64,000 bases of DNA from an uncultured virus (IMG/VR IMGVR_UViG_3300049216_000090) (Duplodnaviria; Heunggongvirae; Uroviricota; Caudoviricetes): IMG/VR virus record IMGVR_UViG_3300049216_000090, one strand, 5' to 3'. The notes below the pieces were generated by a model that searched no databases, had not been told where the DNA came from, and worked only from the letters and a program-made list of their open reading frames with translations. The translations under genes and the position numbers were made by a program. Shown piece after piece: positions 41,175 through 57,488 of this stretch. Positions within the stretch are counted from its first letter, which is position 1. Each line of letters begins with the position of its first letter.

Positions 41175-41235
41175 CCGTGAACTAGACCGGGTTGGCCCGG
41201 TCTACCTTGCGAGACGGAACCATAAGGAGCGAAAG

Positions 41236-42324
41236 ATGCCGCAAGAGTTCAAGGTTTTCTTCGGGCCGAAAGACCCGTGGGCTGCGGAGCCGCCGACGAT
41301 TGACGAGCGGCGGGCGGCGGTGGAAGCGGGGTTCTGCCGCTTCATCGGGAACGCAAAGGCGTTGAAGAAGTTGAAGGCGTCGGCGTTCGATGCGCTGGGC
41401 AAGCACGACCACCTGTGTCGTGAACTGGCGTTCAGCGTCTTCGGCCCGGCGAGCAGTGGCAAGACGACGTTGGCCCGGATGTACGCCAAGACGGTAGACC
41501 TTCCGTTCGTCGAGATCAGCCCGAAGGCGGTCAAGACGATGGACGACGTTTACCGTGAGATCGAGCGGGTTCTCCAGGCCGAAGGGGTTCCGCTGGTGGA
41601 AGTCCGCACCCGGAACACGTTCATCCTGCCGCCGTGTGTGATCTTCATCGACGAAGTTCATGCCGTGGCGAAGCCGGTCGAACAGGGGTTGCTGAAGGCG
41701 ACTGAGTTCAACGATGCCATTCTCGTGACGGAGAGCGGCAAGACGGTGAACTGCATGAACGTCTGTTGGATGATCGCAACGACGGACGAGGGGAAGCTGT
41801 TCGATGCTTTCCGCACCCGGTTCAGCCCGGTGAATCTGAAGTACCTGAGCAAGCCGGAAATCGCCACCATCGTGAAGCTGGCGAACCCGGAGTTCACCGA
41901 CGAAACGGCTTCGCTGGTGTCGCACTACAACAGCCGCATCCCCCGCAAGGCGTTGGAGTTCGCCCGGTACATGAAGTTGGTGAAGGGGATGGAACCGGAG
42001 CGCCCGTGGGAGGAAATCGCAAAGGAAGTCGCCGCCGATGAGGGCATCGACGAACACGGCATGAGCGAGCAGCACCTACGGATTCTGAAGGCGCTGGGGC
42101 AGGGGCCGATTGCTTCCAACCGCATCACGAACGCAGCGGGGGCGAAGAAAGAGGAAGTCGAGCGGTTCATCATGCCGTGGCTGATGACGACGACGGACGA
42201 CGCTCCCGCCCTGGTGACGATGACGAACCGGGGTTACACCATCACGGAAGCCGGGTTGCAGGAGTTGGAAAAGCGGGGCATCGCCCACAAGGGGGCTTTC
42301 GCCCTGCCGAGCTACCGCCCGTAA
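41236..42324 (+). CDS. ruvB: Holliday junction branch migration ATPase RuvB-like protein
   Basis: FIGN, FGPASSGKTTLA, IFIDEVH, IATTDEGKLFDAFRTRF, IPRKA, GIDEHG, winged-helix tail TNRGYTIT. Confidence 0.85.
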   Translation: MPQEFKVFFGPKDPWAAEPPTIDERRAAVEAGFCRFIGNAKALKKLKASAFDALGKHDHLCRELAFSVFGPASSGKTTLARMYAKTVDLPFVEISPKAVKTMDDVYREIERVLQAEGVPLVEVRTRNTFILPPCVIFIDEVHAVAKPVEQGLLKATEFNDAILVTESGKTVNCMNVCWMIATTDEGKLFDAFRTRFSPVNLKYLSKPEIATIVKLANPEFTDETASLVSHYNSRIPRKALEFARYMKLVKGMEPERPWEEIAKEVAADEGIDEHGMSEQHLRILKALGQGPIASNRITNAAGAKKEEVERFIMPWLMTTTDDAPALVTMTNRGYTITEAGLQELEKRGIAHKGAFALPSYRP

Positions 42325-42350
42325 CCAATGGGAAGCGGGTCAGGTAGCGG

Positions 42351-42380
42351 GGCGTGGTCCACCGGGGCCACGCCTTTTTT
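42351..42380 (+). terminator. intrinsic terminator
   Basis: GGCGTGGTCC-ACCG-GGGCCACGCC-TTTTTT. Confidence 0.85.
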
Positions 42381-42458
42381 GCGCATCGAACATTGGGTAC
42401 AAATGCCGGAAGTGGGTTTTAGGCGTTTGTACCCTACGGGTCAACAAGGGGGTGCGAG

Positions 42459-42632
42459 ATGGCGAAGGTGAAGAAGTGGATCATTCAGGATTGGGCGGGG
42501 AACTTCCCATACGGCCAACGGACGTTCGACACGTTCGAGGACGGTTGGGAGTTGATCCGAACCGACCACCCGGACGAAGAGGATTGGCAGGAGTTCTACG
42601 TCGTGCCGAAAGATTCTCCCGAATCCGAGTGA
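42459..42632 (+). CDS. small acidic hypothetical protein (57 aa)
   Basis: MAKVKKWIIQDWAGNFPYGQRTFDTFEDGWELIR...; between motif B and motif A. Confidence 0.7.
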   Translation: MAKVKKWIIQDWAGNFPYGQRTFDTFEDGWELIRTDHPDEEDWQEFYVVPKDSPESE

Positions 42633-42703
42633 CGACCGTGAACTAGACCGGGTTGGCCCGGTCTACCATGCGAGACGAGACGGAACCCATAAGGAGCATC
42701 AAG

Positions 42704-43198
42704 ATGGCGATTGACAAGAACGACAACATCATCGACAGCCGTGACGTGATCGCCCGGCTGAAGGAGTTGAACGACGAGCGGGAGGGGCTGGCTGACACGC
42801 TCCAGGAGGCCCGTGATGCGTTGGCGGAACACGAAGGGCCGGACGACGAAGACCTGGACGACGAAGAGACGGAGGGCGGCAAGCTGAACGCCGCCATCAC
42901 GAAGGCGGAAGGCGAGTTGTCCGATTGGGACGACGAGAACGGGGACGAGCGGAAGGAGTTGGAAGCCTTCGACGAAGAGGGGCGGGACAACTGTTCGGAG
43001 TGGGACGACGGGGCGACGTTGATCGCCAAAGACCACTTCACGGAGTACGCCGAGGAGATGACGAAGGACATCGGCGACATGCCGCAGAACATCCCCAGCT
43101 ACATCGTGATTGATTGGGAGGCGACCGCCGAGAACTTGAAGGCGGATTACACGACGGTGGATTGGGGCGACAGCGAATTCTACGTCCGGTCGTGTTGA
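42704..43198 (+). CDS. ArdA-like acidic antirestriction / DNA-mimic protein
   Basis: Very D/E-rich; C-terminal YAEEM..DIGD.P..IPSYIVIDWEATAENL..DY resembles the ArdA C-terminal domain. Confidence 0.6.
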   Translation: MAIDKNDNIIDSRDVIARLKELNDEREGLADTLQEARDALAEHEGPDDEDLDDEETEGGKLNAAITKAEGELSDWDDENGDERKELEAFDEEGRDNCSEWDDGATLIAKDHFTEYAEEMTKDIGDMPQNIPSYIVIDWEATAENLKADYTTVDWGDSEFYVRSC

Positions 43199-43272
43199 GT
43201 GTGAACTAGACCGGGCTGGCCCGGTCTACCTTGCGAGTCTGGTAAATCCCCAACCTGTACGGAGTCGAGAAC

Positions 43273-43470
43273 ATGGCGAAGGAAATGACGGTCAAGGTGG
43301 AAGGTGACGAACTGGTGATCCGGGTTCCGCTCCAGAAGCCGGAACCGAGCAAGACGGGCAAGACGCTGGTGGTGGCGTCGAGCAAGGGCAACAAGACGAC
43401 CGAGGCCGAGGTCGAGACGCACCCCGGCAAGAAGATCGTGGTGGGGGTGAACGCCTACATCAAGCCGTGA
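43273..43470 (+). CDS. small hypothetical protein (SKTGKTLVVASSKGN motif)
   Basis: GGAG RBS after motif A. Confidence 0.75.
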   Translation: MAKEMTVKVEGDELVIRVPLQKPEPSKTGKTLVVASSKGNKTTEAEVETHPGKKIVVGVNAYIKP

Positions 43471-43491
43471 ACGCTGGTTGGGGTGGACGGG

Positions 43492-43529
43492 CCGGACGGG
43501 GGAGCAGCCGCCCCCTGTCCGGTTTTCTT
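43492..43529 (+). terminator. intrinsic terminator
   Basis: CCGGACGGGGG...CCCCCTGTCCGG-TTTT. Confidence 0.75.
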
Positions 43530-43630
43530 CTGCGGTGGCGGTAGGGTACAAATGTCGGAAGTGCGCTTTAGGCGTTTGTACCCTGGTGGTCGGTCTACCT
43601 TGTGAGACGGAAACCCATACGGAGCTAACG

Positions 43631-45229
43631 ATGCCTGCCTTCCTGATGATTCAGAACCCCGGCGTTGCGGACCCGACGGCCTTCACCCTCCTGGGTGCGT
43701 CCACCAGCCGCAACAGCGGCAGCAATCAGACCATCGGCAAGTTCGGCAGCGGGAACAAGCACGGTGTCGCCGTGTGCCTCCGCAACGCCCTCCCGCCGGT
43801 GGTGTTCGCCGGGAACCTCCGGTTGACGTTCGGCACGACGCCCATCGGCGTGAACAACGGCATCACCACGACGGAGTTCGCCCGTGTCCAGGTGAAGTAC
43901 GGCGGGAAGGACCGTGAGGGCGTGAGCCGTTCCAGCACGGAAGACCTGGGCTTCGTGTTGGAGTACGGGGCGGCGGATTGGGGCACGACCGATCTGGCGC
44001 TCCGGGAGTTCGTGAGCAACGCCATCGACCGGGCGATTGCCGAAGGCGAGTACGAGTTCCTGTTCCGGTACATCGAGGGCAAGGGGGCGGCGTTCGGCGA
44101 ACTGGCGAAGGTGGAAGGGTCGGACGAGCGTGAGGAGATGGGTGTGGCGTTGGAGGAGTACCGGAAGACGGCCCGTGACTTCAAGAACGTGAAGGTGGAA
44201 GTCGTCAACGAGAATCAGGTTCGGGCGAAGGACGGGGTGACACGGGTGTTCATCCCGATGAACGAAGACGTTCTCCGGTTCTACAACAACCTGGGCAAGT
44301 GGTTCCTTCACTTCAGCGAACCGGAGTTGCTGAACGTGACGATTCTCCCGAAGGGGAATCGCAACCTGACGCAACGGCAGGCGGCGGTGATCTACCGGCG
44401 GGGCGTCCGGGTTCGGGAATTCGAGTCGTCGGACGTGGCTTCGCTGTTCGACTACAACCTGCCCGATCTGGAGATGGACGAGAGCCGCAAGGTGGACGAT
44501 TGGAAGGTTCGGTACGCCGCCGGTATCGCCCTCCAGGACGCCAGCAAGGAAGAGTTGGCTACGCTGTTCCAGTCCTTCACCGGGACGACGAAGTTCTGGG
44601 AGTGGGGTTTCGATTCCTACGGGCTGGAATACACCCGCTACGGGGAGAAGTCGGAAGCGACGGCGGCACGTCAAACCCGGTGGCAGGAAGCGTTCACGGC
44701 GGTGCAGGGGGCGGATGCCGTCATCAGCACCCCGGACGGCGGGGAGTTCGCCGAACGCAAGGGCTACAAGGTGCTGAAGGCTCCCGAAGCCTACGTCAAG
44801 GCGGCGGGCAAGATGGGCGTCCGCACCCCGGACAAAGTTCTCACCCAGGACGACAAGGACGGTCGTGAGATCGTCGAAGCCACGCCGGATGCCGAGTCTG
44901 CCGTAGACTTCGTGTGGTCGGTGGTGACGGCGCACGGGATGACGGCGAACAAGAGCCGTCCGAAGGTGAAGTGTTTCCGCAAGATCATGTCGGGCGGTTC
45001 GCAAACGCTCGGCTTCTACCGTGACGGTGTGGTGTACTTCAACACCGACATCGCAGGGTACGGGAGTGTGGAAGGCGGGCAACACGTCCTGTCGCAACAA
45101 CTCCTGACGACGGCGCTGGAGGAAGTGGCGCACTACGTCACCGGGGCGGCTGACAACAGCCGGGACTTCCAGGACTACGTTCTCAACCTCGCCGTCAAGC
45201 TGGCGAAGGGGGCGGCGGGAATCCTGTAA
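43631..45229 (+). CDS. GHKL-type ATPase (permuted motif order) with C-terminal zincin-like domain
   Basis: IQNPG, IGKFGSG, then ALREFVSNAID; C-terminal ALEEVAHYVTG..DNSRDFQ. Confidence 0.65.
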   Translation: MPAFLMIQNPGVADPTAFTLLGASTSRNSGSNQTIGKFGSGNKHGVAVCLRNALPPVVFAGNLRLTFGTTPIGVNNGITTTEFARVQVKYGGKDREGVSRSSTEDLGFVLEYGAADWGTTDLALREFVSNAIDRAIAEGEYEFLFRYIEGKGAAFGELAKVEGSDEREEMGVALEEYRKTARDFKNVKVEVVNENQVRAKDGVTRVFIPMNEDVLRFYNNLGKWFLHFSEPELLNVTILPKGNRNLTQRQAAVIYRRGVRVREFESSDVASLFDYNLPDLEMDESRKVDDWKVRYAAGIALQDASKEELATLFQSFTGTTKFWEWGFDSYGLEYTRYGEKSEATAARQTRWQEAFTAVQGADAVISTPDGGEFAERKGYKVLKAPEAYVKAAGKMGVRTPDKVLTQDDKDGREIVEATPDAESAVDFVWSVVTAHGMTANKSRPKVKCFRKIMSGGSQTLGFYRDGVVYFNTDIAGYGSVEGGQHVLSQQLLTTALEEVAHYVTGAADNSRDFQDYVLNLAVKLAKGAAGIL

Positions 45230-45299
45230 CTAAGTGTGAACTAGACCGCCTCCGGGCGGTCTACCTTGCGAGACGAAACCAACAACGAAGGGGAAGACG

Positions 45300-45611
45300 A
45301 TGAAGGCGAAGCTGGGCGGGCTGGTGCTGCTGGGGGTGTCGCTGTTCGGGGTGTTCCTGGGCGTGTACGTCGGGCTGTGGTGTTGCTACGTCGGGTCGGT
45401 GGTGGAGTTCATCGACGTGTGCAAGGCTCCCACGACCGACGGCGGGGCGGTGGCGTGGTGTCTGTTGAAGTTCTTCATCGGGGGTTCGCTCTCGGTGGTC
45501 GCCGGGTGGGACGGCCCGCTGACCCAGAAGCAAGCCGAGCGGATTGCGAAGGAAATCCGCAAGGACACCGGCGTGGCGACGAAGGTGTTGCCGGTCGGAA
45601 CGGAGCCTTGA
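45300..45611 (+). CDS. membrane protein
   Basis: After motif A; hydrophobic segments. Confidence 0.7.
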   Translation: MKAKLGGLVLLGVSLFGVFLGVYVGLWCCYVGSVVEFIDVCKAPTTDGGAVAWCLLKFFIGGSLSVVAGWDGPLTQKQAERIAKEIRKDTGVATKVLPVGTEP

Positions 45612-45687
45612 AATTTCCAACTAAGTGTGAACTAGACCGGGCTGGCCCGGTCTACCTTGCGAGAACGAACCCCATAAGGAAACGAAC

Positions 45688-46032
45688 ATGGCCCGTCCGA
45701 AGCTGGTCGCCCTGGTCCCGGTCACGGTCGAACTGGTCAAGAAGCAGGTGCAGAGCGTCACGGCCCCGCACACCGAGGACGCTCAGGCGGCGTTGGAGCG
45801 GTTCCAACACTTCAAGGACGAACTCGACTTGCAACTGACGAGCATCCACCAGTCGGCGGGGGTGTTGAAGAGTGACGAAGTGGTGGACGACGGGGCGTGT
45901 GACGCCATCGTGACGTGCCTCCAGAAGATCGCCACCGCCTGGAACGACTACATCACGGCCAGCGGGATGAGCGGCTTCGACAAGTTGGAGCCGGTGGCCG
46001 ACCTGGAGCCGTCGCCGTACCAGGAAGATTAG
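45688..46032 (+). CDS. hypothetical protein
   Basis: After motif A and TAAGGA. Confidence 0.75.
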   Translation: MARPKLVALVPVTVELVKKQVQSVTAPHTEDAQAALERFQHFKDELDLQLTSIHQSAGVLKSDEVVDDGACDAIVTCLQKIATAWNDYITASGMSGFDKLEPVADLEPSPYQED

Positions 46033-46090
46033 TGTGAACTAGACCGGGTTGGCCCGGTCTACCATGCGAGAACCCCATACGGAGAAGCTG

Positions 46091-46378
46091 ATGCAAATCG
46101 CAACCCAGAAGCGGCTGGCAATCGAAAGTCTGGTGGTAGACGGGGAGAAGGACGGCACGATGCAGGGCTACACGCCGGGCGAGCGTGGGTTCAAGCCCCC
46201 GTTCGCCATCTTCTCGCCCGACCTCCAGCACAACGTCGGCGGGCCGTATGCGTCGGCCAAAGACGCCCTGAAAGCCATCACCCTGATGCGGGGCGGGGCG
46301 ATGGTTCCGTACACCGACGACGCCACGGTGGTGTGGACGGTGAACGGCAGGCCGAGCGAGTGGTACGAAAAAGATTGA
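46091..46378 (+). CDS. hypothetical protein
   Basis: After motif A and GGAG. Confidence 0.75.
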   Translation: MQIATQKRLAIESLVVDGEKDGTMQGYTPGERGFKPPFAIFSPDLQHNVGGPYASAKDALKAITLMRGGAMVPYTDDATVVWTVNGRPSEWYEKD

Positions 46379-46444
46379 AGACCGTGAACTAGACCGGGTT
46401 GGCCCGGTCTACCATGCGAGACGGAAACCATAAGGAACCAAATC

Positions 46445-46702
46445 ATGCCGGAAACAGTGAAGGCCGTGTTTCGTCGGGACCGGGGCGGCATCGTGTTCGC
46501 CATGTTCCCTTACGACATTGCGACCCACGAAGGCCACTGCACCTGTTACGAACACGTCGGCCAGCACAGCGCCGCCGACTACACCGCCTGCATCGCCACG
46601 AGCCGCCCGGCCAAGCCCGACGAGTACGCCCCGCTGTTGCGGGAACTCGAAACCCGTGGCTACAACGTCCAGGTCATCAAACGCCGCAATAGGGGGAACT
46701 GA
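46445..46702 (+). CDS. phage hypothetical protein (CYEHVGQHS motif)
   Basis: After motif A and TAAGGA. Confidence 0.8.
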   Translation: MPETVKAVFRRDRGGIVFAMFPYDIATHEGHCTCYEHVGQHSAADYTACIATSRPAKPDEYAPLLRELETRGYNVQVIKRRNRGN

Positions 46703-46704
46703 GC

Positions 46705-46881
46705 ATGTTCAGCGGAAACCTTCACGACATCGGTGTGGCGGTGAGCGAAGCGAAGACGAACATCCGGGCGGCGCTCGCCATCCTGCACCACCTGAAGCAC
46801 GGGACGGAGCAACTGACCCCGGCCCAGGTGAAGGAGATGGTGGAAGAGGCCGAACACCACCTGAAGAAAATCGGCGACTGA
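46705..46881 (+). CDS. small hypothetical protein (58 aa)
   Basis: MFSGNLHDIGVAVSEAKTNIR...; stop abuts the next motif A. Confidence 0.65.
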   Translation: MFSGNLHDIGVAVSEAKTNIRAALAILHHLKHGTEQLTPAQVKEMVEEAEHHLKKIGD

Positions 46882-46943
46882 GTGTGAACTAGACCGGGTT
46901 GGCCCGGTCTACCATGCGAGACGGAAACCATAAGGAACAAAGA

Positions 46944-47243
46944 ATGAAGCAGCCGACGACTCTCGCCCCGTTCGCCTGTCCGAAATGCGGCAACACGACG
47001 GCCCAGAAGGGCATCAGTCACGCCTGGATCGAGTGGCGGGTGGCGGGCGTGTTGGGTTCGCACGACGGAAAGCCGGTGGTGAACTTCCAGGACAACGAGG
47101 GCGAGAGCATCGGGCCGGGCGAGCGGTTCACCCGTGAGAACGTCCCCAACGACGTGCCCGACCTGTCGCACTTCCACTGCAACGCCTGTAGCTGGAACTG
47201 GTTCCTGGCCGACACGGTGGATTCCTTCGATCTTCGGAAATGA
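46944..47243 (+). CDS. zinc-ribbon protein
   Basis: CPKC...CNAC; after motif A. Confidence 0.75.
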   Translation: MKQPTTLAPFACPKCGNTTAQKGISHAWIEWRVAGVLGSHDGKPVVNFQDNEGESIGPGERFTRENVPNDVPDLSHFHCNACSWNWFLADTVDSFDLRK

Positions 47244-47283
47244 CCGTGAACTAGACCGGGTTGGCCCGGTCTACCATGCGAGA

Positions 47284-47580
47284 AAAGGGAACGGGCAAGC
47301 CGGGTGGATGAGCCGAAGAGCCTGCCACCGATTGTACGAGAGACGTAAGCAATGCACTGGCCGTAGACCGGGGCGGCGGGAGGCCGCATGAGTTATCGGG
47401 GCAGACCGGGCGAAGTTGTCCCACTATCCATGAAACGCCAGACCCCAACGGTAGGAAAGCACCGTGAAATATCCCACCGGATTTACCTAGCTCGCTGCGG
47501 CGAGAGGCCGCATGATCGCCCGGCGTGAAGCCGGGAACTTTACCGGGGCGGGAAGTTCTCCCGCCCTACTTGCGAACACT
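47284..47580 (+). ncRNA. candidate structured RNA / long leader
   Basis: About 300 nt without a credible ORF after motif A; duplicated GCGGC-GRGAG-GCCGC-ATGA hairpin and further stems. Confidence 0.5.
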
Positions 47581-47595
47581 TCACAAGGGCACGAC

Positions 47596-47901
47596 ATGAA
47601 GACGAAGAAGCCGTTCCAGAGCAAGAGCCGGATGCGCAAGGCGTTGGAACTGTTGAACGCCGCCGACGACCAGTTGCACGCCATCCGTGACCACTTCGAC
47701 ATGGAGTGGGGCGAGAACTCCCACAGCGAACTCGACACCAACCTGCTCCACGCCATCGGGAAGATCATCGACGCCAAGCGTGCCGTGGAAGACACCCTGG
47801 CGAAGTACAAGGGCAAGAGCGTCACCCCGCACTTCCCCACGAAGCGGAAGGCGAAGCCCGCCGTGACCGTGGGCCAGTTGCAGAAAGCGCTGGTTTGTTG
47901 A
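47596..47901 (+). CDS. hypothetical protein
   Basis: AAGGG RBS. Confidence 0.7.
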   Translation: MKTKKPFQSKSRMRKALELLNAADDQLHAIRDHFDMEWGENSHSELDTNLLHAIGKIIDAKRAVEDTLAKYKGKSVTPHFPTKRKAKPAVTVGQLQKALVC

Positions 47902-47975
47902 AAGTGACCGTGAACTAGACCGGGTTGGCCCGGTCTACCATGCGAGACGGAAACCGCAACCATAAGGAACCGAAC

Positions 47976-48212
47976 ATGCAGTACGTCACTCTGGTCCCCG
48001 CCTACGGTCGTGATTACAAGTCGGCGAAGGACGTGAAGGCGGCGTGGGCCGAGGGCAAGGACTTCCAGATCAACGACATGAGCCACCCGAACGACGGGAG
48101 CTATGTCAACATCAACGACGACACCACCGGACTCACCTTCAACATCCGGTACAAGAACCTCACCGGCGTGGCGGTCATCAAGGGCGGAAAGCCGAAGACG
48201 GCCACGAAGTAA
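47976..48212 (+). CDS. phage hypothetical protein (PAYGRDYKS motif)
   Basis: After motif A and TAAGGA. Confidence 0.8.
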   Translation: MQYVTLVPAYGRDYKSAKDVKAAWAEGKDFQINDMSHPNDGSYVNINDDTTGLTFNIRYKNLTGVAVIKGGKPKTATK

Positions 48213-48222
48213 CCGGGAAGTC

Positions 48223-48344: not shown

Positions 48345-48364
48345 AGCACACATAAGGGCAACAC

Positions 48365-50283: not shown

Positions 50284-50376
50284 AAACTTTCTGGAAGACC
50301 GTGAACTAGACCGGGTTGGCCTGGTCTACCTTGCGAGAAGAGTTGAAACCATCATCACCACAGTAGGGAAAACGAG

Positions 50377-50643: not shown

Positions 50644-50725
50644 AACTTTCTACTAGACCGTGAACTAGCCGCCCGGTTCACGGTCTACCTTGCGAGAACG
50701 AATCACCCCAATAAGGAATGCGAAC

Positions 50726-51241
50726 ATGAAGGCCACCGGAAACGACATCGCCAAGCTGATCGAAGACCGCATGGAATCGGTGACGGTTCCCAACATCATC
50801 GCCGAGTACCTGGGCACGAAGGCCGGGAAGATGCTCACGGTGCGGCACGAGAAGGAACTGAAGGACATCACCGGCGACAGCGAGTTGCGCATCCGCAAGC
50901 AGTACGGCATGACGAACATCGTGTGGGGCGGGTACGACCGCACGGGGGGCAACGGGGGCGGTTCGCTGCTGCTGGCCCACACGGAAACCAGCGTCATCAT
51001 CCCGACCGCCGAAGTGGTCCGGGAGAAGAACCCGGCGTACTTCTCGGCGGCTCTGGCCCGCAACGAGAAGCGGGTGAAGGCTCTGGCCGACCGTGCCACG
51101 CTGGATGAGGTCGCCACGCTCGCCGACACCATCCTGAAGGCACAAGCCCGGTTGAAAGAACTGTTCGCCTACGGCACGCCGTTGGACCCCGACCACTACG
51201 GTATCGAGGAACTTGTCGGTTTGTCGGAAAAGCGCCGGTAA
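50726..51241 (+). CDS. hypothetical protein
   Basis: After motif A variant and TAAGGA. Confidence 0.75.
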   Translation: MKATGNDIAKLIEDRMESVTVPNIIAEYLGTKAGKMLTVRHEKELKDITGDSELRIRKQYGMTNIVWGGYDRTGGNGGGSLLLAHTETSVIIPTAEVVREKNPAYFSAALARNEKRVKALADRATLDEVATLADTILKAQARLKELFAYGTPLDPDHYGIEELVGLSEKRR

Positions 51242-51307
51242 GTCGTGAACTAGACCGGGTTCGCCCGGTCTACCTTGCGAGACGAGAACCCCATACGGAG
51301 AACGAGA

Positions 51308-51775
51308 ATGCACAAGTGCGTTTCCCCCGGCTGTGTCCTCCCCGGCGTCATCAAGCTGGAGGTCGAAGGCCCGCCGGACTGGACGAAGGAACACAAGTGG
51401 TGTTGCGTGGAACACGTCACCACGGAAGAGAAGCGGGCGGAAGAACTCCAGGGCTGGAGCAAGTGGGTCGAAGTCGTCCCGGTCGTGGGGATGGGGGCGA
51501 CGGCGGGGTATGGGAGCGACAGCTACCCGTATACCATCATCGCCGTGAGCGCCAACGGGAAGACCATCACCGTACAGGCCGACGACCACCACCCCGCCCC
51601 CGGCTGTGACCACTTCACGAACCAAGTGTACACCTACACGCCGAACCCGAACGGCTCCACGAAGGTCTACACGCTCCGCAGTAACGGGCGCTGGGTGTTG
51701 AAGGGCGACACCATGAAGGGCGGGCAGGCCATCGGCATCGGGGCACGACGCTACTACCAAGACCCAAGTTTCTGA
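51308..51775 (+). CDS. phage hypothetical protein (VGMGAT...SDSYPYTI...YQDPSF motif)
   Basis: After motif A and GGAG. Confidence 0.75.
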   Translation: MHKCVSPGCVLPGVIKLEVEGPPDWTKEHKWCCVEHVTTEEKRAEELQGWSKWVEVVPVVGMGATAGYGSDSYPYTIIAVSANGKTITVQADDHHPAPGCDHFTNQVYTYTPNPNGSTKVYTLRSNGRWVLKGDTMKGGQAIGIGARRYYQDPSF

Positions 51776-51781
51776 CCGACG

Positions 51782-51813
51782 AACCCAGCCCCGCCCGGCT
51801 GGGTTTTCTTTTT
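51782..51813 (+). terminator. intrinsic terminator
   Basis: AACCCAGCC...GGCTGGGTT-TTCTTTTT. Confidence 0.8.
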
Positions 51814-51993
51814 GGGATACCGACAGGGTACAAATGTTGAAGGTTCGATTTTAGGCGTTTGTACCCTACGGGGGGCAAGGGCCGAGACGAACCGGACGAC
51901 GAAAAGAAAAAAGAAACGAAGTGTGAACTAGGACGGTTCGGCCCGGTCTACCTTGCGAGTCGGAAACCACCACAACCTGTAGGGATCGAAACG

Positions 51994-52242
51994 ATGAACG
52001 TCCTCACCGCCGCCAAGACCGCCATGCTGACCCTGAACGACACGCTCTCCACCATCGCCCGCAAGAACGGCCAGACGGTGAAGGCCGTGACCGTGGACGT
52101 GGAGAAGACCAACCTGGACGCCGGGAAGATCGTCGGCACGGTGACGGTCAACAACCGCAGCCGCCGCCCCTTCACCGTGAACGTGACCGGCTCCGGGGTC
52201 GTGGTCAAGTTCTACGGGGAAGAGGCGAAAATCGCCGCCTAA
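51994..52242 (+). CDS. hypothetical protein
   Basis: After motifs B and A. Confidence 0.7.
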   Translation: MNVLTAAKTAMLTLNDTLSTIARKNGQTVKAVTVDVEKTNLDAGKIVGTVTVNNRSRRPFTVNVTGSGVVVKFYGEEAKIAA

Positions 52243-52327
52243 GTCGGCCTAGACCGTGAACTAGACGGCTAGTTCACGGTCTACCTTGCGAGAACGACAT
52301 ACGGAAACCCCTTCAAGGAACTACGGA

Positions 52328-52588
52328 ATGAAGAAGAAGAACCCGACGCTCGCCAAGACGGTTTCGTGGCTCGTGGTGTCCGGCATCCTCATCACCTGCA
52401 CCGGCTGGTTCGAGTCCGGTAGCTTCATGGTGGGGTTCATGACTGCGGTGTGGGCCAGCATCATCAAAACCCCCATCTACAGCCTGCACGAAGCGCTGTG
52501 GGGGCGGGTGATCTTCAAGGAGAAGCCCGCCCCGACGCCCGACATCAAGCTGTTCGGGACGGTCGAACAACTCGAAAAAGTGTCGTGA
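52328..52588 (+). CDS. DUF2061-like membrane protein
   Basis: TLAKTVSW...KTPIYSLHEALW. Confidence 0.65.
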   Translation: MKKKNPTLAKTVSWLVVSGILITCTGWFESGSFMVGFMTAVWASIIKTPIYSLHEALWGRVIFKEKPAPTPDIKLFGTVEQLEKVS

Positions 52589-52653
52589 AGAGTGTGAACT
52601 AGACCGGGTTCGCCCGGTCTACCTTGCGAGAACGAAACCCACGGGGAAACGCA

Positions 52654-52899
52654 ATGCGAGTCGAACGAATCGTCTTCCTGCAAGGTGAGGAAGCCCGCCC
52701 GGTGTTGGAACTGCTGGACGAACAGGGGCAGGGGGCGGCGGTCGAACACCTGCAACAGTGGTTCAACCCCGGCGAGCATGAGGTTTCCCACTGCCTAGCA
52801 GCGGGAACGCACGACCGGACGTTCCACGACGGCAAGGGGTTCACGCTCACCTGGAACGACGGGTTGGAGTACATCGGGCTGGAATTCGCCCACAAGTAG
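52654..52899 (+). CDS. hypothetical protein
   Basis: After motif A. Confidence 0.75.
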   Translation: MRVERIVFLQGEEARPVLELLDEQGQGAAVEHLQQWFNPGEHEVSHCLAAGTHDRTFHDGKGFTLTWNDGLEYIGLEFAHK

Positions 52900-53054
52900 A
52901 ACACTTGGAGCGTGGCACGGGCTGGGGAGTGGGTAGGACGTTCAGAATGTTCAGGGTTCCTACCCCTGAACGAATTGAATGCCGCTCTCCAGCACCGGCC
53001 CATTGCGAATTAGACAGTTGTACCCTACGGGTCATAACCCTACAGGAGTCTGCG

Positions 53055-53225
53055 ATGCAAGTCGGAACCAACATCAAACTGTTCACCGCCCGCATGTTCG
53101 GGGTCGTGGTCACGGCCCACGTCCTCAAGGTCAGCAAGGACGGGCAGCGGGCGAAGGTGCGTTGCTCCGGGGGCGGGGCGACGTGGGAAGAGAAAATCCA
53201 CATCAACCAACTGGTGACGGAATGA
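53055..53225 (+). CDS. small hypothetical protein
   Basis: AGGAG RBS after motif B half site. Confidence 0.65.
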   Translation: MQVGTNIKLFTARMFGVVVTAHVLKVSKDGQRAKVRCSGGGATWEEKIHINQLVTE

Positions 53226-53488
53226 AACGAGAATACCGCCGCACCAACAAGCGGCTTCGGAACTTGCGAAACATGACCTTCCAGTTCCGGGAGGTCAACC
53301 AAGCGGGCGACGTGTTCCGTGACCACTACCGACACGACAAGGCGCAAATAACGCTCGTGCGGCACACCCACCAGTACGACAACGGCGACGTGTTCGTGAA
53401 CTGGCATTGTGTCGAGTTGGGCGGGGGGAACGCCGGTATCGGCTACTGGTTGAAATTGGCCGAACGCCGCATGAGGCCGGTGAAGTAA
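53222..53488 (+). CDS. hypothetical protein
   Basis: ATGA coupling. Confidence 0.65.
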   Translation: MKREYRRTNKRLRNLRNMTFQFREVNQAGDVFRDHYRHDKAQITLVRHTHQYDNGDVFVNWHCVELGGGNAGIGYWLKLAERRMRPVK

Positions 53489-53490
53489 TC

Positions 53491-53519
53491 AGCCGGGGCT
53501 ATAGCCCCGGTTTTTTCTT
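53491..53519 (+). terminator. terminator (palindrome CCGGGGCTATAGCCCCGG)
   Basis: Same palindrome recurs at 57088; T tract follows. Confidence 0.75.
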
Positions 53520-53573
53520 GGGCTATAGCTTTAAGCAATTGTACCCTAGTGGTCAACAAGGGAGGATCGAACG

Positions 53574-53756
53574 ATGGAAAAGACTGCGAACGAACTGGCT
53601 ACGCTGCTCCGGGAACTCGCCGACGCCTGCGAAGCCGCAGCGAAGGGCGACAAGGCGGCCCGCAAGCTGCTCGCCGACCACACCGACAGCCGGTGGTTCG
53701 GGCTGGTGGTCGGGGCGGGCAAGGTGCAGGAACTCCAGGGCGACGAAGAAAACTGA
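53574..53756 (+). CDS. small hypothetical protein
   Basis: GGAGG RBS after motif B half site. Confidence 0.7.
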   Translation: MEKTANELATLLRELADACEAAAKGDKAARKLLADHTDSRWFGLVVGAGKVQELQGDEEN

Positions 53757-53826
53757 AAGTAACCGTGAACTAGACCGGGCGAACCCGGTCTACCTTCCGA
53801 CAACAACACCCCAACGGGATGCGAAC

Positions 53827-54000
53827 ATGAAGCAGATGAAGACGGTGACGATGAAGACGGAAAAGCCCATGCGGGGCAAGGCCAAGAAGGTCGGCAAGGG
53901 TCACTCGTTCGGCTCGGCGGGGGCGGGGCGCAACACCCTGTTCATCTCCCGCAAGAGTCGGGGCAACGACAAGGTGCGAATCCAACAGGGGGAATTCTAA
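53827..54000 (+). CDS. small basic protein
   Basis: After motif A; K/R/G-rich. Confidence 0.65.
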   Translation: MKQMKTVTMKTEKPMRGKAKKVGKGHSFGSAGAGRNTLFISRKSRGNDKVRIQQGEF

Positions 54001-54491
54001 TGGACCGTGCGTTACTCGAAACACTCTTCGGGGTGTTCGGCATCAAGCGCCCCGTGGTCGGGGTGGACCTGCCCACCGGGGCTATCGTCGTCGGGCCGTT
54101 CACCCTCTCCCGCAACGAAGTGACGGTGAAGGGGTTACGGGGCGACCGGCAAGCGTCGAGCTATACCCTTGACGTGGATACCGGCGGGGGTGACGTTCTC
54201 GACCTGTTCACGGATACCGACTTCCGCAAGGTGGCGGTGCGGATGGTCGGGGAATACGCTCAGTGGCGGGCTACTGTCACGCTGGATATGCTCGCCGATA
54301 CTGCTCAGGCGGAAGCGTGGCAGAAGGATCAAGAGGAGTTGAAGGCGGCACGGGCGGAAGGGAAAGCCTACTGGCTGGCGACAGCGCCAGGGGCACGCAC
54401 GAAGGACGCCAACCCCTACCCCTACGGCATCGCCCACTATCAACAGTGGGGGGCGGGGTACGACGAAGCGGACGCCGAAGCGGTGTTCTGA
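54000..54491 (+). CDS. hypothetical protein
   Basis: TAATG coupling. Confidence 0.7.
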   Translation: MDRALLETLFGVFGIKRPVVGVDLPTGAIVVGPFTLSRNEVTVKGLRGDRQASSYTLDVDTGGGDVLDLFTDTDFRKVAVRMVGEYAQWRATVTLDMLADTAQAEAWQKDQEELKAARAEGKAYWLATAPGARTKDANPYPYGIAHYQQWGAGYDEADAEAVF

Positions 54492-54573
54492 GAAATCTTG
54501 TGAAGGTCGTGAACTAGACCGGGTTCGCCCGGTCTACCTTGCGAGACGGAAACCCAACCTGAAAGGTGATGCG

Positions 54574-55188
54574 ATGAACACGACAACCGCCCCCGGCATC
54601 TTCGGCAGCATCGACACCCGCACCCGTGTCCGCAACGGACGCAACCGGGAGAACCAGATTGCGAAGGCTCTGAAGGAGCAACACGGTCTGCCGCTGGTCG
54701 AACCGACGGAGGCCGAAGACAAGTACCGCAAGATCGACCGCTGGCTCGTCCAGGGCGACAGCCGGACGGCGGTGCAAATCAAGTACCGGGAGAGCGGCGA
54801 CGATTTGCTGGTCGAAGTGTGGGACAAGTGGTTCGGCTGGGGTCACGAGTTCAACAAGCTGGGGCGGGATGTGCAGGGCGACAGCAAGCTGTACGCCGTG
54901 CTTCGCCTGGACCGCACCACGGTGGTGCTGACCAGTGCTGACGTGCTGAAGGCGATTGTGCAGGAGATGGTTGACCACTGCATCGCCGGGGGCTGGACGC
55001 ACGACAACGGCCCGGACTCGAAAACCTTCCACTTCGCCAAAGCGGGCGGGCGGTGTGTCCTGAAGGTTCAGCGTGACCCGCACGACGGGCGGGCGAAGAT
55101 GGTGGCCTACATCCCGGCGAACGTCGTCATCGCCGAGCATCAGGCGAAGACGTACCGGGTGAACCTGCCTGCCAACTGGCAGGAGTGA
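54574..55188 (+). CDS. PD-(D/E)XK superfamily nuclease-like protein
   Basis: E(NQIA)...EDKYRKIDRW...VQIKYR...LVE pattern. Confidence 0.55.
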   Translation: MNTTTAPGIFGSIDTRTRVRNGRNRENQIAKALKEQHGLPLVEPTEAEDKYRKIDRWLVQGDSRTAVQIKYRESGDDLLVEVWDKWFGWGHEFNKLGRDVQGDSKLYAVLRLDRTTVVLTSADVLKAIVQEMVDHCIAGGWTHDNGPDSKTFHFAKAGGRCVLKVQRDPHDGRAKMVAYIPANVVIAEHQAKTYRVNLPANWQE

Positions 55189-55200
55189 GCCGGGCTAGTA

Positions 55201-55243
55201 CGGGGAACATCCGCAGGAGTTAGCTACTCCTGCGGACTCCCCG
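55201..55243 (+). terminator. long hairpin (probable terminator)
   Basis: CGGGGA..TCCGCAGGAGT-TAGCT-ACTCCTGCGGA.TCCCCG. Confidence 0.6.
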
Positions 55244-55306
55244 GAACGCAGGCTTTAGGCGATTGTACCCTAGTGAGTGCCCAACCAACACCATACGGAG
55301 AACGAC

Positions 55307-55906
55307 ATGCGGAACATCATCCTGAGCATCGAACACGACCACGACGCCGAGATGCCGGACAGCGCTTGCGACGGCTGGAAACTGGTGTCCTTCAGCCGCC
55401 GTCACATCAACAGCGGCGACCCGTTCGACTACTTCACCGAAAACCGCAAGGTGTCCGGCAAGTACACCAGCAAGGCACGGGCGGGGCTGTTCTACGTCCT
55501 CAGCTACTACGAACACGGCGGGTGTGAGTGGAGCATGAAGGGCGAAGGGGTGCAATGCCAGTGGGATAGCGTGGGCGTGGCGGGTGTGCTGGTGTGGACC
55601 GGGAAGCCCACCGACTTGCCGAAGGACAAGCGCAACGAGTCGGCCCGCTCCTTCCTGAAGGAATACAACGAGTGGGCGAACGGTAACTGCTACTACTACA
55701 GCCTCACGACGGACGAAGGCGAAGACGTGGGCGGGTGTGGGGGCATCATCGGCAGCGACTACCTTGCCGAAATCATCGGCGAAGACTTGGAACCCGGCGA
55801 CCGTGTGAAGATCGAAGGGGAGATGCACTTTCTGGGGGACTACCTGAAGTTCCCGGCGGGTGTCGAGAAGGTGGACGACTTCGACGACGAAGAAGAGGCC
55901 GCTTGA
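55307..55906 (+). CDS. acidic phage hypothetical protein
   Basis: GGAG RBS after motif B half site. Confidence 0.75.
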   Translation: MRNIILSIEHDHDAEMPDSACDGWKLVSFSRRHINSGDPFDYFTENRKVSGKYTSKARAGLFYVLSYYEHGGCEWSMKGEGVQCQWDSVGVAGVLVWTGKPTDLPKDKRNESARSFLKEYNEWANGNCYYYSLTTDEGEDVGGCGGIIGSDYLAEIIGEDLEPGDRVKIEGEMHFLGDYLKFPAGVEKVDDFDDEEEAA

Positions 55907-55912
55907 ACGACG

Positions 55913-55943
55913 AAGACCCAGGCTGGCCCGGCCTGGGTTTTTC
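55913..55943 (+). terminator. intrinsic terminator
   Basis: ACCCAGGC...GCCTGGGT-TTTTC. Confidence 0.8.
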
Positions 55944-56000
55944 TGTTGGACCACCGTAAGGTACAAATGTTGAAGGTTCGCTTCAGACAATTGTACCCCA

Positions 56001-56315
56001 CTGGACGTTGAGAAGTTACCAACACCCCTGACGGGGTGAACGCCGAGAGTCAAGAGGGAAGCATCGAAAGTGCCCCGCAAGGGGCCGACCCGATCTAAGC
56101 GTTGTGGTTCACTGTACTGGCTAACTCCCCTGAGCGTGTCACCTGGACATTGCGAAGGGAACTGACTGCGGGATGTAGCTAACCCCGCACGTTGCCGAGT
56201 ACGACGCAAACGACGAGTAAGGGCAATGCTGAAGCCTTGAACGGGCGATGTGAGTCACCTGCGGAAGCTAGGTGCGACAAAGGACCGGGGGGACGCCCCT
56301 GGTCCTTTGCTTTTT
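56001..56315 (+). ncRNA. candidate structured non-coding RNA (about 310 nt)
   Basis: Bounded by motif B (55960-56000) and a terminator (56278-56315); several stable hairpins; no RBS/ATG ORF. Confidence 0.6.
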
Positions 56316-56368
56316 GCCCGACACTTCAAACAATTGTACCCTACGGGACTCACCCCGGAGGCATTGCG

Positions 56369-56590
56369 ATGTTCTGGTCCACCATGACGACTTACCCGAC
56401 CGCCGAGTTCGCCCAACTGGTGGCGGGCGCTGCCAACCACGGGCAGGAGAACCCACGGGCGAAGGCCGAGGGCACGGCGGTTCTCGTCTCCCACAAGCGG
56501 AAGACGATGCCGAACTACGAAGCGGAATACTGGCTCGCCCAACTGAAGGGCGTGGAGCGGGCCATCCTGTTCATGCAAAAGAAAAACTAA
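56369..56590 (+). CDS. hypothetical protein
   Basis: GGAGG RBS after motif B half site. Confidence 0.7.
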   Translation: MFWSTMTTYPTAEFAQLVAGAANHGQENPRAKAEGTAVLVSHKRKTMPNYEAEYWLAQLKGVERAILFMQKKN

Positions 56591-56664
56591 GTCACCGTGA
56601 ACTAGACCGGGTTCGCCCGGTCTACCTTGTGAAGTCGCCCGACACCACCATAAGGAATGCGAAC

Positions 56665-57078
56665 ATGGCGAAGTCCAAGACCGTCACCACCCCCCGCAAG
56701 CTGGTCAGCACCATCATCGACGCCACCCCCGGCGTCGTCCGTGCGGTCCACGTCTTCACCCCGGCGTTGCAACACCGGCTCGCCACGGCGGGCAGCGAAC
56801 TGCCGGTGATGGCGCTGCGGAGCAGCCTGCACGAGTACAACCTGTTCAAGCTGTACCAGCGCATCGAACTGCTGGGGCCGTCCAGCATGGACCCGCTTTT
56901 CGACAAGCCCCTGAGCGGCACGGGCGGGCGGGGCGTGGCGATTCTCTTCACGGAGTTCGCCCTACGGGTGTGGCACTTCGACGACGAAACGCCCGCCGTC
57001 ATCGACAGCAAGGACGGGCGGAACCCGCAGGACGTGCTAAAGGACGTTCTCGCCGCCTACGTCCGCAACAAGTTCTGA
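56665..57078 (+). CDS. hypothetical protein
   Basis: After motif A and TAAGGA. Confidence 0.75.
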   Translation: MAKSKTVTTPRKLVSTIIDATPGVVRAVHVFTPALQHRLATAGSELPVMALRSSLHEYNLFKLYQRIELLGPSSMDPLFDKPLSGTGGRGVAILFTEFALRVWHFDDETPAVIDSKDGRNPQDVLKDVLAAYVRNKF

Positions 57079-57087
57079 CGGTAAGGG

Positions 57088-57114
57088 GCCGGGGCTATAG
57101 CCCCGGCTTCTCTT
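57088..57114 (+). terminator. terminator (palindrome GCCGGGGCTATAGCCCCGGC)
   Basis: 20-bp perfect palindrome plus TTCTCTT. Confidence 0.7.
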
Positions 57115-57190
57115 GGGGATATAGCTGCGGTACAAATGTTGAAAATATAGCTTCAGGCAATTGTACCCTACGGGGCAGGAGGACCGAAAC

Positions 57191-57418
57191 ATGAAAGTGC
57201 GAGTCGGATCGAAGTACGTTTTCAACCGTGCGGGCTGGGACATCGCCGACCCGAAGGTGAAAATCGACAACGGAACCGTGGTCAAGGTCGGCAACATGCG
57301 GGGCTGCCCGCCTGCGAACACGATGGGCCACTGCTACGTTTTCACCCTGTCGGGTGAGTTCCTGGGCATGGTGTCAACCGCCAGCCTGAGCAAGCCGGAA
57401 AAGAAAAAGAAAAAGTAA
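57191..57418 (+). CDS. hypothetical protein (GCPPANTMGHCYV motif)
   Basis: AGGAGG RBS after motif B. Confidence 0.75.
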   Translation: MKVRVGSKYVFNRAGWDIADPKVKIDNGTVVKVGNMRGCPPANTMGHCYVFTLSGEFLGMVSTASLSKPEKKKKK

Positions 57419-57488
57419 GTGAACCGTGAACTAGACCGGGTTCGCCCGGTCTACCTTGCGAGACGGAAACCCCCAACGGAGAACGAAA

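Follow-up and report, generated by a model that had tools for sequence, protein, structure and literature searches.

How very large phages express and exchange their hundreds of small, functionally uncharacterised genes is largely unexplained. We address this question with a 64,000-nt stretch of DNA from an uncultured virus assigned to the Caudoviricetes (IMG/VR record IMGVR_UViG_3300049216_000090, hereafter the window), in which an array of small genes punctuated by a repeated element, motif A, gives a readable grammar. The initial annotation had described motif A as a 38-bp palindrome that both expresses each gene of the array and provides homology for gene gain, loss and reordering. Our analysis indicates that motif A is likely a promoter, defined by two boxes at a fixed distance, and that the palindrome is an optional part lying in the spacer between them. 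The public sequencing runs that contain the stretch are labelled moss metagenome, and those that cover it best may be its source.

Distribution of motif A in the window

Scanning the window with the consensus GTGAACTAGACCGGG-N4-CCCGGTCTACCWTGCGAG, allowing up to three mismatches, returned 20 matches, all on the + strand and 15 of them exact, where 0.00 were expected from 100 dinucleotide-preserving shuffles; 19 of the 20 lay within 41177-57462 and one at 7632. With a relaxed core, GTGAAC-N16-GGTCTA with at most one mismatch across its 12 fixed bases, we recovered exactly 23 copies in 41177-57462, all reading + (0 expected), which is the number and the strand initially reported. The limits first given for the array (41177 to 57463) enclose all of these copies, but the motif also occurs beyond them: the relaxed core matched at 1783, 7632, 11214 and 21190, the last a probable chance hit, and a degenerate copy stands at 15516, inside the 3' end of one open reading frame (ORF; 15245-15577) and upstream of another (15603-16967). 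Matches to the core on the reverse strand were found only at 50660 and 52256, where long perfect palindromes read alike in both directions. The alignment of 27 window copies was invariant at TGAACT.G and GGTCT.

The position of the motif relative to genes was as regular as first described, with a stop codon within about 20 nt before it and a leader and start codon behind. The stop of the nearest called upstream ORF lay 1-20 nt before motif A in 22 of the 27 copies, and a called start codon followed GGTCTA after 29-59 nt, mostly 29-48 nt, again in 22 of 27; these start codons were preceded by AAGGA, ACGGAG or TAGGGA. All credible ORFs in 41-59.4 kb were on the + strand, with a G+C content at third codon positions (GC3) near 0.85. 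The copies at 46384, 46884 and 48793 were mutually identical over 54-57 nt, slightly more than the 50 bp or so noted before. No array ORF product matched another at E <= 1e-4, so that the cargo genes are unrelated, and no ORF was called in the roughly 315 nt behind the copy at 47246; the earlier picture of units holding small unrelated ORFs or an RNA thus agrees with what we found.

Conservation of two boxes in related genomes

A search with the AAA+ protein encoded in the array (Table 1) identified three viral contigs, the best of which, at 78% identity, was the IMG/VR record G001, of 532,729 bp. Among the 96 ORF products of the window, 55 were matched at 165-241 kb of G001 with 31-82% protein identity, and 50 of these 55 kept their order. 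The same marker protein retrieved 21 further relatives from metagenomes.

The window version of the motif is not present in G001, and exact-pattern scans for it gave no match in the viral, metagenome or genome contig sets. G001 carries a version of its own, CCGAACC-N15-GGTCTTCC or, in fuller form, AAAGTTTCC-GAACC, 15 bases, GGTCTTCC(W)TGCG, which precedes orthologous genes; a scan for this version returned 10 loci, all on G001 itself, a single contig. Within the 120 kb examined, GAAC-N16-[GC]GTCT occurred 21 times forward and twice in reverse, and 20 of the 21 forward copies had a ribosome-binding site and a start codon (ATG, in one case GTG) within 21-60 nt, the copy at 147740 having no clear one. 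Over the whole of G001, CGAAC-N16-GGTCTTC with at most one mismatch was found 27 times forward and 9 times in reverse, compared with 3 and 4 for the reversed pattern used as a control, and its 26 exact matches (24 forward) all fell between 5 and 262 kb. In an ungapped alignment of the 21 copies, only CGAAC and GTCTTC were invariant, always 16 bp apart, and seven of the 16 spacer positions had no majority base.

Motif A stood before both members of nine orthologous gene pairs, each genome using its own version: those of the SNF2, AAA+ and ArdA-like genes, of the 532-aa ORF, and of the ORFs at 47976, 50377, 51308, 54000 and 54574. The contig L025, which represents a third lineage with a GC content of 0.36, carried TTCCCCAAAC-N16-GTCATAG 13 times with no hairpin, and the shorter AAC-N16-GTC 16 times forward and twice in reverse. 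What relatives conserve is thus the boxes and their spacing, and the palindrome, which most window copies have, is optional there.

Two boxes at a fixed distance with a free spacer, on one strand and at a constant distance from the ribosome-binding site, form the signature of a promoter, and from these comparisons we consider it likely that motif A is one. For the claim that the element expresses each gene the support is comparative, the two boxes being kept before orthologous genes in G001, always upstream of a ribosome-binding site and ATG.

Probable promoter class and candidate sigma factors

GAAC-N17-GTCT was invariant in the 27 aligned window copies and in the 21 copies of G001, in agreement with the boxes and spacing of promoters read by extracytoplasmic function (ECF) sigma factors. 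In published work, the E. coli sigma-E -35 is GGAACTT (PMC2893595, PMC3326320) and its -10 TCAAA, the meningococcal -10 being TCTAA (PMC2893595), the S. meliloti RpoE1 promoter reads GAAT-N18-GTCT (PMC3616915), and sigma-E spacers are described as poorly conserved (PMC3326320). Motif A shares with these promoters a -35 containing AAC, a -10 containing GTC or TCT, and a fixed distance of 16-18 bp. It differs from them in that the window copies vary far less than those of a bacterial regulon, that the window spacer forms a hairpin, and that no ECF sigma was identified in the window or in G001. On balance, we favour the composite reading of motif A as an ECF-sigma-type two-box promoter, GAAC-N17-GTCT, with an optional hairpin. 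GTGAAC would then be the -35 element, followed by a 16-bp spacer, and GGTCTACC would serve as the -10. The start of transcription would fall within CCWTGCGAG, a few bases beyond the -10, and the resulting leader of 20-35 nt (GAGACGGAAACCATAAGGA...) would bear the ribosome-binding site of the next small gene.

Several observations weigh against this assignment. No sigma domain was found by Pfam in the 96 ORF products of the window, and the two sigma-family proteins of G001 scored below the ECF-superfamily cut-off (41.8 vs 42.9 bits). More distant relatives (L019/L002, L029, L027 and L030) carry other repeated motifs that do not fit AAC-N16/17-GTC, which implies that the box sequences are lineage-specific. 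Finally, the four sequencing runs exist as contigs, which carry no RNA starts, ends or strand.

Other known promoter types fitted less well. A sigma-54 reading (GG-N10-GC) was rejected by inspection because the spacing is 13 and the loop variable, and sigma-32 and sigma-70 readings because the best hexamers are 19-20 bp apart. Outside the array, six near-identical sigma-70-type promoters, TTTACA-N17-TATnAT, were found at 0.5-30 kb, all on the + strand, with GG upstream of the second hexamer in five and GT in one. Inside the array, such sites showed no excess (4 vs 3.1 expected). This distribution suggests a separate expression class for 0-31 kb, putatively driven by the host sigma, and motif A, judged by its boxes, is a predicted promoter class apart from that of the host housekeeping sigma.

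G001 encodes a gp23-type major capsid protein (E 9.9e-87) and two proteins of the sigma-70 family. One, of 179 aa, is gp55-like, comprises region 2 only and adjoins tail-tube-like genes; the other, of 322 aa, is RpoD/RpoS-like. No beta-prime gene was found in G001, and the two sigma genes together with this result indicate that the phage retargets the host polymerase. A search of G001 for a T7/N4-type polymerase (PF00940) gave no match, but the positive control was silent too, so that this absence is weakly supported. Because the window is syntenic with G001, we assign it to a T4-type phage: the gene content indicates that it is part of a roughly half-megabase T4-type phage retargeting the host RNA polymerase. 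The phage origin assumed at the outset agrees with this synteny and with matches to PHROGs across the window. Either a host ECF sigma or a divergent phage factor may read motif A; since the boxes are lineage-specific across phages of very different GC content, we lean slightly towards a phage-specified factor.

The gene for the 322-aa sigma itself lies downstream of a near-perfect sigma-70 promoter, TTGAGT-N17-TATAAT (L005 1010-1068; about 90.2 kb of G001). Such a promoter suits early expression of a phage sigma, which could then switch on a later class.

A hairpin in the spacer

Among 28 sites of the window, 24 folded at -13 to -24.9 kcal/mol, compared with shuffle means of -5 to -12.5; folds were weak at 1783, 15516, 21190 and 51923, and 49597 was marginal. 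Most array copies have a perfect inverted repeat of 9 bp that extends into the -10 box, giving a palindrome of 22 nt. The 3' arm of the hairpin always contains the start of the -10 box and the partner sequence varies: it is TAGACCGGG in most window copies, two compensatory pairs occur at 45236, and at 50660 and 52256 palindromes of 12 and 15 bp absorb GTGAAC. In G001 the spacer holds a hairpin in 13 of 21 sites and none in the other eight. Three stem types of G001 form a series of U-A, U-G and C-G pairs, and the window copy at 50301 has a G-U pair. That the palindrome is optional, as these eight copies and those of L025 show, had been left out of the first description.

The presence of the hairpin followed the position of the preceding gene. 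All 13 hairpin copies of G001 have TGA or TAA 5-9 nt upstream, and six of the eight hairpin-less copies do not. Hairpin copies of the window lie 1-20 nt after stop codons, and the stem is broken at 51923, which stands behind a true terminator and motif B (a second repeated element, described below). The hairpin is optional and tied to a promoter abutting the stop of the preceding gene. It is not an intrinsic terminator, the stem being followed by CCWTGCGAG with no T run, and our terminator scan listed no motif A hairpin although it found true terminators in the array.

Some results fit a role of the hairpin less well. The copy at 1783 lies 6 nt past a stop and has a weak hairpin only, and the G001 copy at 155170, 5 nt past a stop, has none. 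Pair counts in G001 (78.1% of cells paired vs 70.6% in shuffles, with 2/500 shuffles as high) provide weak formal support, the G001 covariation score was reached in 28/500 shuffles, and in the window neither pairing nor covariation was significant (75/500 and 209/500 shuffles). In addition, the ACC/GGT part of the stem complementarity is inherent in the boxes themselves. Because formal covariation is weak, we base the case for the hairpin on its alternative stems and its context.

We suggest that the hairpin probably ends or protects the RNA of the preceding gene. It would be a 9-bp, GC-rich, optional part of the spacer, with the -10 box itself as its 3' arm. Were the preceding gene read through from upstream, the hairpin would come to lie at the end of its RNA and could attenuate transcription there or block degradation from the 3' end, so that neighbouring units would be insulated from one another. 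Its placement in the free spacer would serve compactness. An RNA-library contig (51139-51289) is continuous across the copy at 51245, which fits such read-through or DNA carry-over.

Motif B, terminators and the order of the array

Two further components structure the array and were missing from the first account. Motif B, TTAGGC(G/A)(T/A)TTGTACCCTACGGG, occurs on the + strand only, in 13 copies between 40923 and 58867. A terminator-like hairpin immediately precedes about 10 of these copies, all 13 lead into a ribosome-binding site and ATG, and six have an inverted partner, GGGTACAAA, 21-23 nt upstream. The second component comprises hairpin-plus-T-run terminators, found at 42351, 43492, 51781, 53491, 55925 and 56278. 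The order of the array is a terminator, motif B and a gene, then motif A and a gene, repeated, and again a terminator.

The core of motif B was recovered in G001 18 times forward and never in reverse (control 1 and 0), always at 213.3-233.2 kb of the 532.7 kb, within the 20 kb of the corresponding array. Among distant, AT-rich relatives, L002/L003 and L027 have versions of the motif that keep the GTACC(C)T core, and by inspection several copies have a TTGAAr-like hexamer 17 bp before TACCCT. We see two candidate roles for motif B, that of a second class of promoter or that of an operator.

Since motif B, and not motif A, begins the units after terminators, a finding that tells against a promoter role for motif A, we retained as a rival that motif A is an intercistronic RNA element inside operons running from motif B to true terminators. 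Its hairpin would be cut, bound or used as a 3' stabiliser and, with a conserved translation leader, would uncouple neighbouring cistrons. Motif A indeed follows stops inside units, the leader behind it is conserved within and between genomes (ACCATAAGGA vs ACCATAGGGAG), the G-U stem intermediates suggest pairing in RNA, and the contig that runs through 51245 would be expected, DNA carry-over apart. However, eight of 21 copies in G001 and 13 of 13 in L025 lack the hairpin and yet keep two boxes at a fixed 16 bp, and a constant distance across a spacer that neither is conserved nor pairs is easier to reconcile with a site read in duplex DNA than with one in RNA. Hairpin-less copies of motif A also occur far from any motif B, as is clear from the different extents of the two motifs in G001, and the boxes match a known promoter class. 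We thus regard an RNA element of this kind as unlikely and keep the promoter reading.

Gene turnover and possible recombination

The initial annotation further proposed that motif A provides homology for the gain, loss and reordering of genes. Shared genes were collinear between the window and G001, and the intervening stretches hold different genes; for example, five units at 45236-47245 correspond to three to four unrelated units at 218.6-220.6 kb of G001. Matches in G001 were found for 17 of 38 ORF products of the array and for 38 of 58 outside it. The gene at 57191-57418 follows motif B in the window; in G001 its orthologue is displaced by 75 kb and follows motif A. Motif subtypes were clustered in the window (8 of 22 adjacent pairs identical vs 3.8 expected, p ~0.017) and, less clearly, in G001 (5 of 14 neighbours vs 2.7 expected, p ~0.08), which fits local spread or gene conversion.

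Near-identical copies of 37-57 bp would offer homology for recombination that adds, deletes or swaps units. Such a role fits these data, but so does ordinary gene turnover, which is not separable from motif-mediated exchange when nearly every gene boundary bears a motif; protein identities of 31-82%, moreover, do not allow breakpoints to be located. We hold a recombination role of motif A to be possible, leaning slightly against it.

As to excised circles, we found one ambiguous junction. A DNA contig of run X3 (depth 3.55) passes from 52100-52593 via 38 shared motif bases into the sequence behind 51245; it may reflect a circle or a tandem duplication of the units 51245-52593, or a de Bruijn-graph artefact. 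In the deeper run X1, contigs simply break at motifs. Joints from X1 (41214>45628, 45670>41162 and several with sides of 21-22 nt) were discarded as placements of short repeat-bearing contigs. Contigs of the RNA libraries touched 7 of 30 bins, which says nothing about the parts without cover, and two of these libraries, X8 and X9, with identical rows, are probably one data set. A 224-nt contig from X8/X9 (depth 3.4, adapter letters at its end) joins 47536 to 48072 with no homology at the joint. The 535 nt thus skipped hold an ORF, one copy of motif A and the beginning of the ORF behind it; a chimeric contig, a variant genome and RNA processing are all conceivable explanations.

A stronger claim would make motif A first of all a site of recombination or mobility, as an attC-like boundary or as a selfish palindromic repeat, with regulation secondary. 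The near-identity of the copies, the clustered subtypes, the different genes between collinear ones, the displaced gene at 57191-57418, the X3 junction and the stop codons that motif A carries in two frames (TGA, TAG) all suit this idea. However, Pfam detected no integrase, recombinase or transposase domain in the 96 ORF products except a 39-residue "integrase repeat unit" (PF14882, E 1.5e-10), encoded at 11793-12224, some 29 kb before the array begins. The motif does not vary in orientation and keeps a strict distance to the start codon, and relatives conserve the boxes, not the palindrome. The X3 junction, of low depth and through a repeat longer than the word size, may be an artefact, and any whole-gene insertion or deletion would look unit-wise here. 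We thus find a primarily recombinational element quite improbable.

Least probable of all, and by our reckoning very unlikely, is that the palindrome acts as DNA, as the operator of a dimeric phage regulator or as an extruded hairpin of the kind at phage N4 early promoters: the inverted repeat over the -10 box and the two long variants enclosing both boxes in palindromes of 12-15 bp would suit it, but unrelated stems interchange (45236, 49597, 50660, 52256 and the three G001 types), which a protein making sequence-specific contacts would hardly tolerate, boxes persist in copies that have no hairpin, so that the hairpin is not required for recognition, and the lack of a T7/N4-type polymerase domain in G001 adds little, its control being silent.

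Comparison with known systems

The closest parallel is with the promoter-early stem-loop (PeSL) cassettes of the T4-type phages RB49/phi1, T4/PST and KVP40/nt-1 (Arbiol et al., 2010, PMC2839356; Comeau et al., 2014, PMC4122927), and this comparison, already drawn in the initial annotation, proved apt. The PeSL promoter follows the sigma-70 consensus of the host and has AT-rich DNA upstream (PMC2839356), the stem-loop stands beside the promoter and was shown to terminate, and mini-circles were shown, recombination between copies also giving indels and replacements. Motif A is likewise a repeated, near-identical composite of promoter-like sequence and a stable GC-rich stem-loop. It, too, is intergenic and concentrated where a T4-type phage keeps a variable set of small orphan genes, one copy serves each small gene or pair of genes, and modules could be exchanged through the homology that the copies offer. 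In contrast to PeSLs, its boxes are GAAC-N17-GTCT and not the sigma-70 consensus, its hairpin is nested between the -35 and -10, has no T run and has a predicted function only, which would be the same job as that of the PeSL stem-loop, circles are represented by one ambiguous contig junction, and the host phage has a genome of about 0.5 Mb.

The parallel with integrons, also raised initially, failed. Both are one-strand arrays of short unrelated genes between imperfect palindromes. Integron attC sites measure 57-141 nt, whereas the motif A palindrome has 22 nt and is dispensable in relatives. We ruled out an integron because no adjacent integrase was found by Pfam in the 96 ORF products and the cassettes carry their own promoter-like motif and ribosome-binding site. 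In CRISPR arrays, repeats stand regularly about 25-70 bp apart and the DNA between them is non-coding; here, the motifs are 333-2917 bp apart and the intervals are filled by ORFs with ribosome-binding sites, which ruled out this identity too. An N4-type obligate hairpin promoter was rejected since the boxes are kept without a hairpin in 8 of 21 G001 copies and in L025.

Phage-specific promoter sets are the conserved promoters of T7-type polymerases or of phage-encoded sigma factors. Motif A resembles them in its many near-identical, strand-specific copies before one expression class and in its lineage-specific version; it differs in being two-box and not one block, and no phage RNA polymerase was found in G001. 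Our search of the main texts of papers on T4-type cassettes, ECF promoters and huge-phage promoters yielded no description of the motif or of a hairpin nested in a megaphage promoter, and the phage G paper, in the part considered, gives generic promoter predictions only (PMC12484599).

Phages of 0.5 Mb appear to share the T4-type cassette principle, that of a promoter and a stem-loop combined in one portable piece. New with respect to known cassettes would be the alternative-sigma promoter class and the folding of the hairpin into the promoter spacer, a nested layout that would make an unusually economical overlap of two signals. A wider and more tentative picture, which we think rather doubtful as a whole, is that of a T4-like phage lineage of about 0.5 Mb with a dedicated accessory-gene island of 18-20 kb and two private promoter classes, in which motif A would pack three functions into 37 bp: a non-housekeeping and possibly phage-specified sigma promoter, an RNA hairpin closing the preceding message, and, through its uniform copies, crossover points for the gain, loss and movement of small genes. 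As part of the same picture, the boxes would change by lineage in step with the factor reading them. If the promoter class is confirmed, the motif would mark one expression class across the genome and its relatives and would provide a compact natural promoter-insulator part; if not, it is still a clean marker of cassette boundaries.

Gene content of the window

Few of the window products could be named by Pfam or PHROGs: a NADAR protein, a T4 gp30.3-like protein, the SNF2 helicase and the AAA+/RuvB-like protein, together with a Kyanoviridae Gp96-like ORF and several PHROGs of unknown function. For most array ORFs neither database assigned a function. The suggestion that the cargo is enriched for host take-over or anti-defence genes comes down to a single ArdA-like match of ORF 42704-43198, which scores 24.2 bits and so falls short of the Pfam cut-off of 27. 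In G001 the counterpart of the 532-aa ORF stands behind a full motif A copy at 216724, where the window has the half-motif at 43592. A search of the viral contig set for relatives of the 532-aa ORF returned none, and a conserved 204-aa array protein matched only unnamed viral clusters in a protein atlas. Against 50,697 phage records, blastn returned only matches of 108-144 nt at 73-76% identity, to Caulobacter and Erythrobacter phages. Coordinates are given in Table 1.

Table 1. Positions of motif A, motif B, terminators and other features in the window; copies in G001 are given by their start.
Feature	Position	Strand	Remarks
Array	40923..59408	+	about 45 small ORFs, 23 motif A, 13 motif B, intrinsic terminators
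Motif A	1783..1819	+	outside array; weak hairpin, -5.1 kcal/mol
Motif A	7632..7668	+	before SNF2 helicase gene; 8-bp stem; G001 orthologue copy 174403 hairpin-less
Motif A	11214..11250	+	outside array; 9-bp stem, loop CCAG
Motif A, degenerate	15516..15552	+	ATGAAC...GGTCTT, 2 mismatches; no clear hairpin
Motif A	41177..41213	+	before AAA+/RuvB-like gene; G001 orthologue copy 213521 hairpin-less
Motif A	42638..42674	+	before ArdA-like ORF; G001 orthologue copy 215599
Motif A	43201..43237	+	loop CTGG
Motif A, right half only	43592..43606	+	GGTCTACCTTGTGAG; fused behind motif B, before 532-aa ORF
Motif A	45236..45272	+	two compensatory stem changes (TAGACCGCC-TCCG-GGCGGTCTA)
Motif A	45627..45663	+	
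Motif A	46034..46070	+	
Motif A	46384..46420	+	same as 48793 over 57 nt
Motif A	46884..46920	+	same as 46384 over 55 nt
Motif A	47246..47282	+	then 47283-47596 without called ORF
Motif A	47910..47946	+	G001 orthologue copy 221592
Motif A	48793..48829	+	
Motif A	49186..49222	+	loop TTCG
Motif A boxes, different spacer	49597..49633	+	alternative 7-bp stem, marginal vs shuffles
Motif A	50301..50337	+	one G-T (G-U) stem pair; G001 orthologue copy 224074
Motif A variant	50654..50696	+	boxes and N16 kept; hairpin a 12-bp palindrome including GTGAAC, -20.6 kcal/mol
Motif A	51245..51281	+	G001 orthologue copy 225100; bridged by RNA-library contig 51139-51289
Motif A	51923..51959	+	broken hairpin, -7.8 kcal/mol; sole array copy after terminator and motif B
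Motif A variant	52250..52292	+	15-bp perfect palindrome over both boxes, -24.9 kcal/mol
Motif A	52594..52630	+	
Motif A	53765..53801	+	loop CGAA; G001 orthologous unit copy 226567
Motif A	54509..54545	+	G001 orthologue copy 227395 hairpin-less
Motif A	56597..56633	+	
Motif A	57426..57462	+	
Motif B	40923..40947	+	TTAGGnnTTTGTACCCTACGG
Motif B	42419..42443	+	after terminator
Motif B	43568..43592	+	after terminator; fused to motif A right half
Motif B	50025..50049	+	
Motif B	51851..51875	+	after terminator
Motif B	53010..53034	+	
Motif B	53531..53555	+	after terminator
Motif B	55255..55279	+	
Motif B	56326..56350	+	after terminator
Motif B	57153..57177	+	G001 orthologue of next gene elsewhere (155217), behind motif A
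Motif B	57914..57938	+	after terminator
Motif B	58382..58406	+	after terminator
Motif B	58843..58867	+	
Terminator, canonical	42351..42380	+	GC hairpin and T6, after AAA+ gene
Terminator-like hairpin	43492..43530	+	followed by TTTTCTT
Terminator, canonical intrinsic	51781..51815	+	
Terminator, canonical intrinsic	53491..53520	+	
Terminator, canonical intrinsic	56278..56317	+	
Sigma-70-type promoters	537-565, 14463-14491, 17966-17994, 26248-26276, 28158-28186, 30116-30144	+	
SNF2 helicase gene	7703-9973	+	Pfam; motif A upstream
AAA+ ATPase gene	41236..42324	+	RuvB-like N and C domains (Pfam); marker for finding relatives

Other observations

The stretch behind the motif A copy at 47246 (47283-47596), up to an ORF probably starting at 47597, was compared with about 220646-220997 of G001: a 52-nt core is 81% identical, and both stretches are non-coding. 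Rfam gave only a chance-level best match on 47200-47700 (E 0.43). This stretch is a candidate for a conserved structured RNA or a long leader. Over the whole window, Rfam at the gathering score returned no family and a search for tRNAs returned none. On L012, at about 4000-4070 (about 224.0 kb of G001), GGTTCGAGTCCCACC lies upstream of the motif A copy at 224074 and resembles the end of a tRNA T-arm; it is a candidate only.

Upstream of the array, at about 28000-40000, the + strand is skewed in composition (GC skew to -0.36, AT skew to +0.41), with an abrupt end at about 40 kb, where the array starts; many long ORFs of this region fell below the GC3 filter. Short tandem repeats at 39201-39231 and 39332-39367 precede the AAA+/RuvB-like gene by about 2 kb; the cores GAGCTATATC and CTTGTGAAGC are common to them and to repeats in the same relative place in G001 (L001 7081-7144 and 7203-7270). 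Tandem repeats also stand upstream of the AAA+ gene in L002 (5235-5323) and L024 (6554-6660). These repeats are iteron-like; next to the gene of an AAA+ initiator-like protein, they could mark an origin of replication or the site of a regulator.

Downstream of the array, a segment of 48-83 nt (...CGTGCATGAACATCAT...) occurs three to four times within neighbouring - strand ORFs at 59811-61785, which suggests a small paralogous gene family just past the array, where gene orientation flips.

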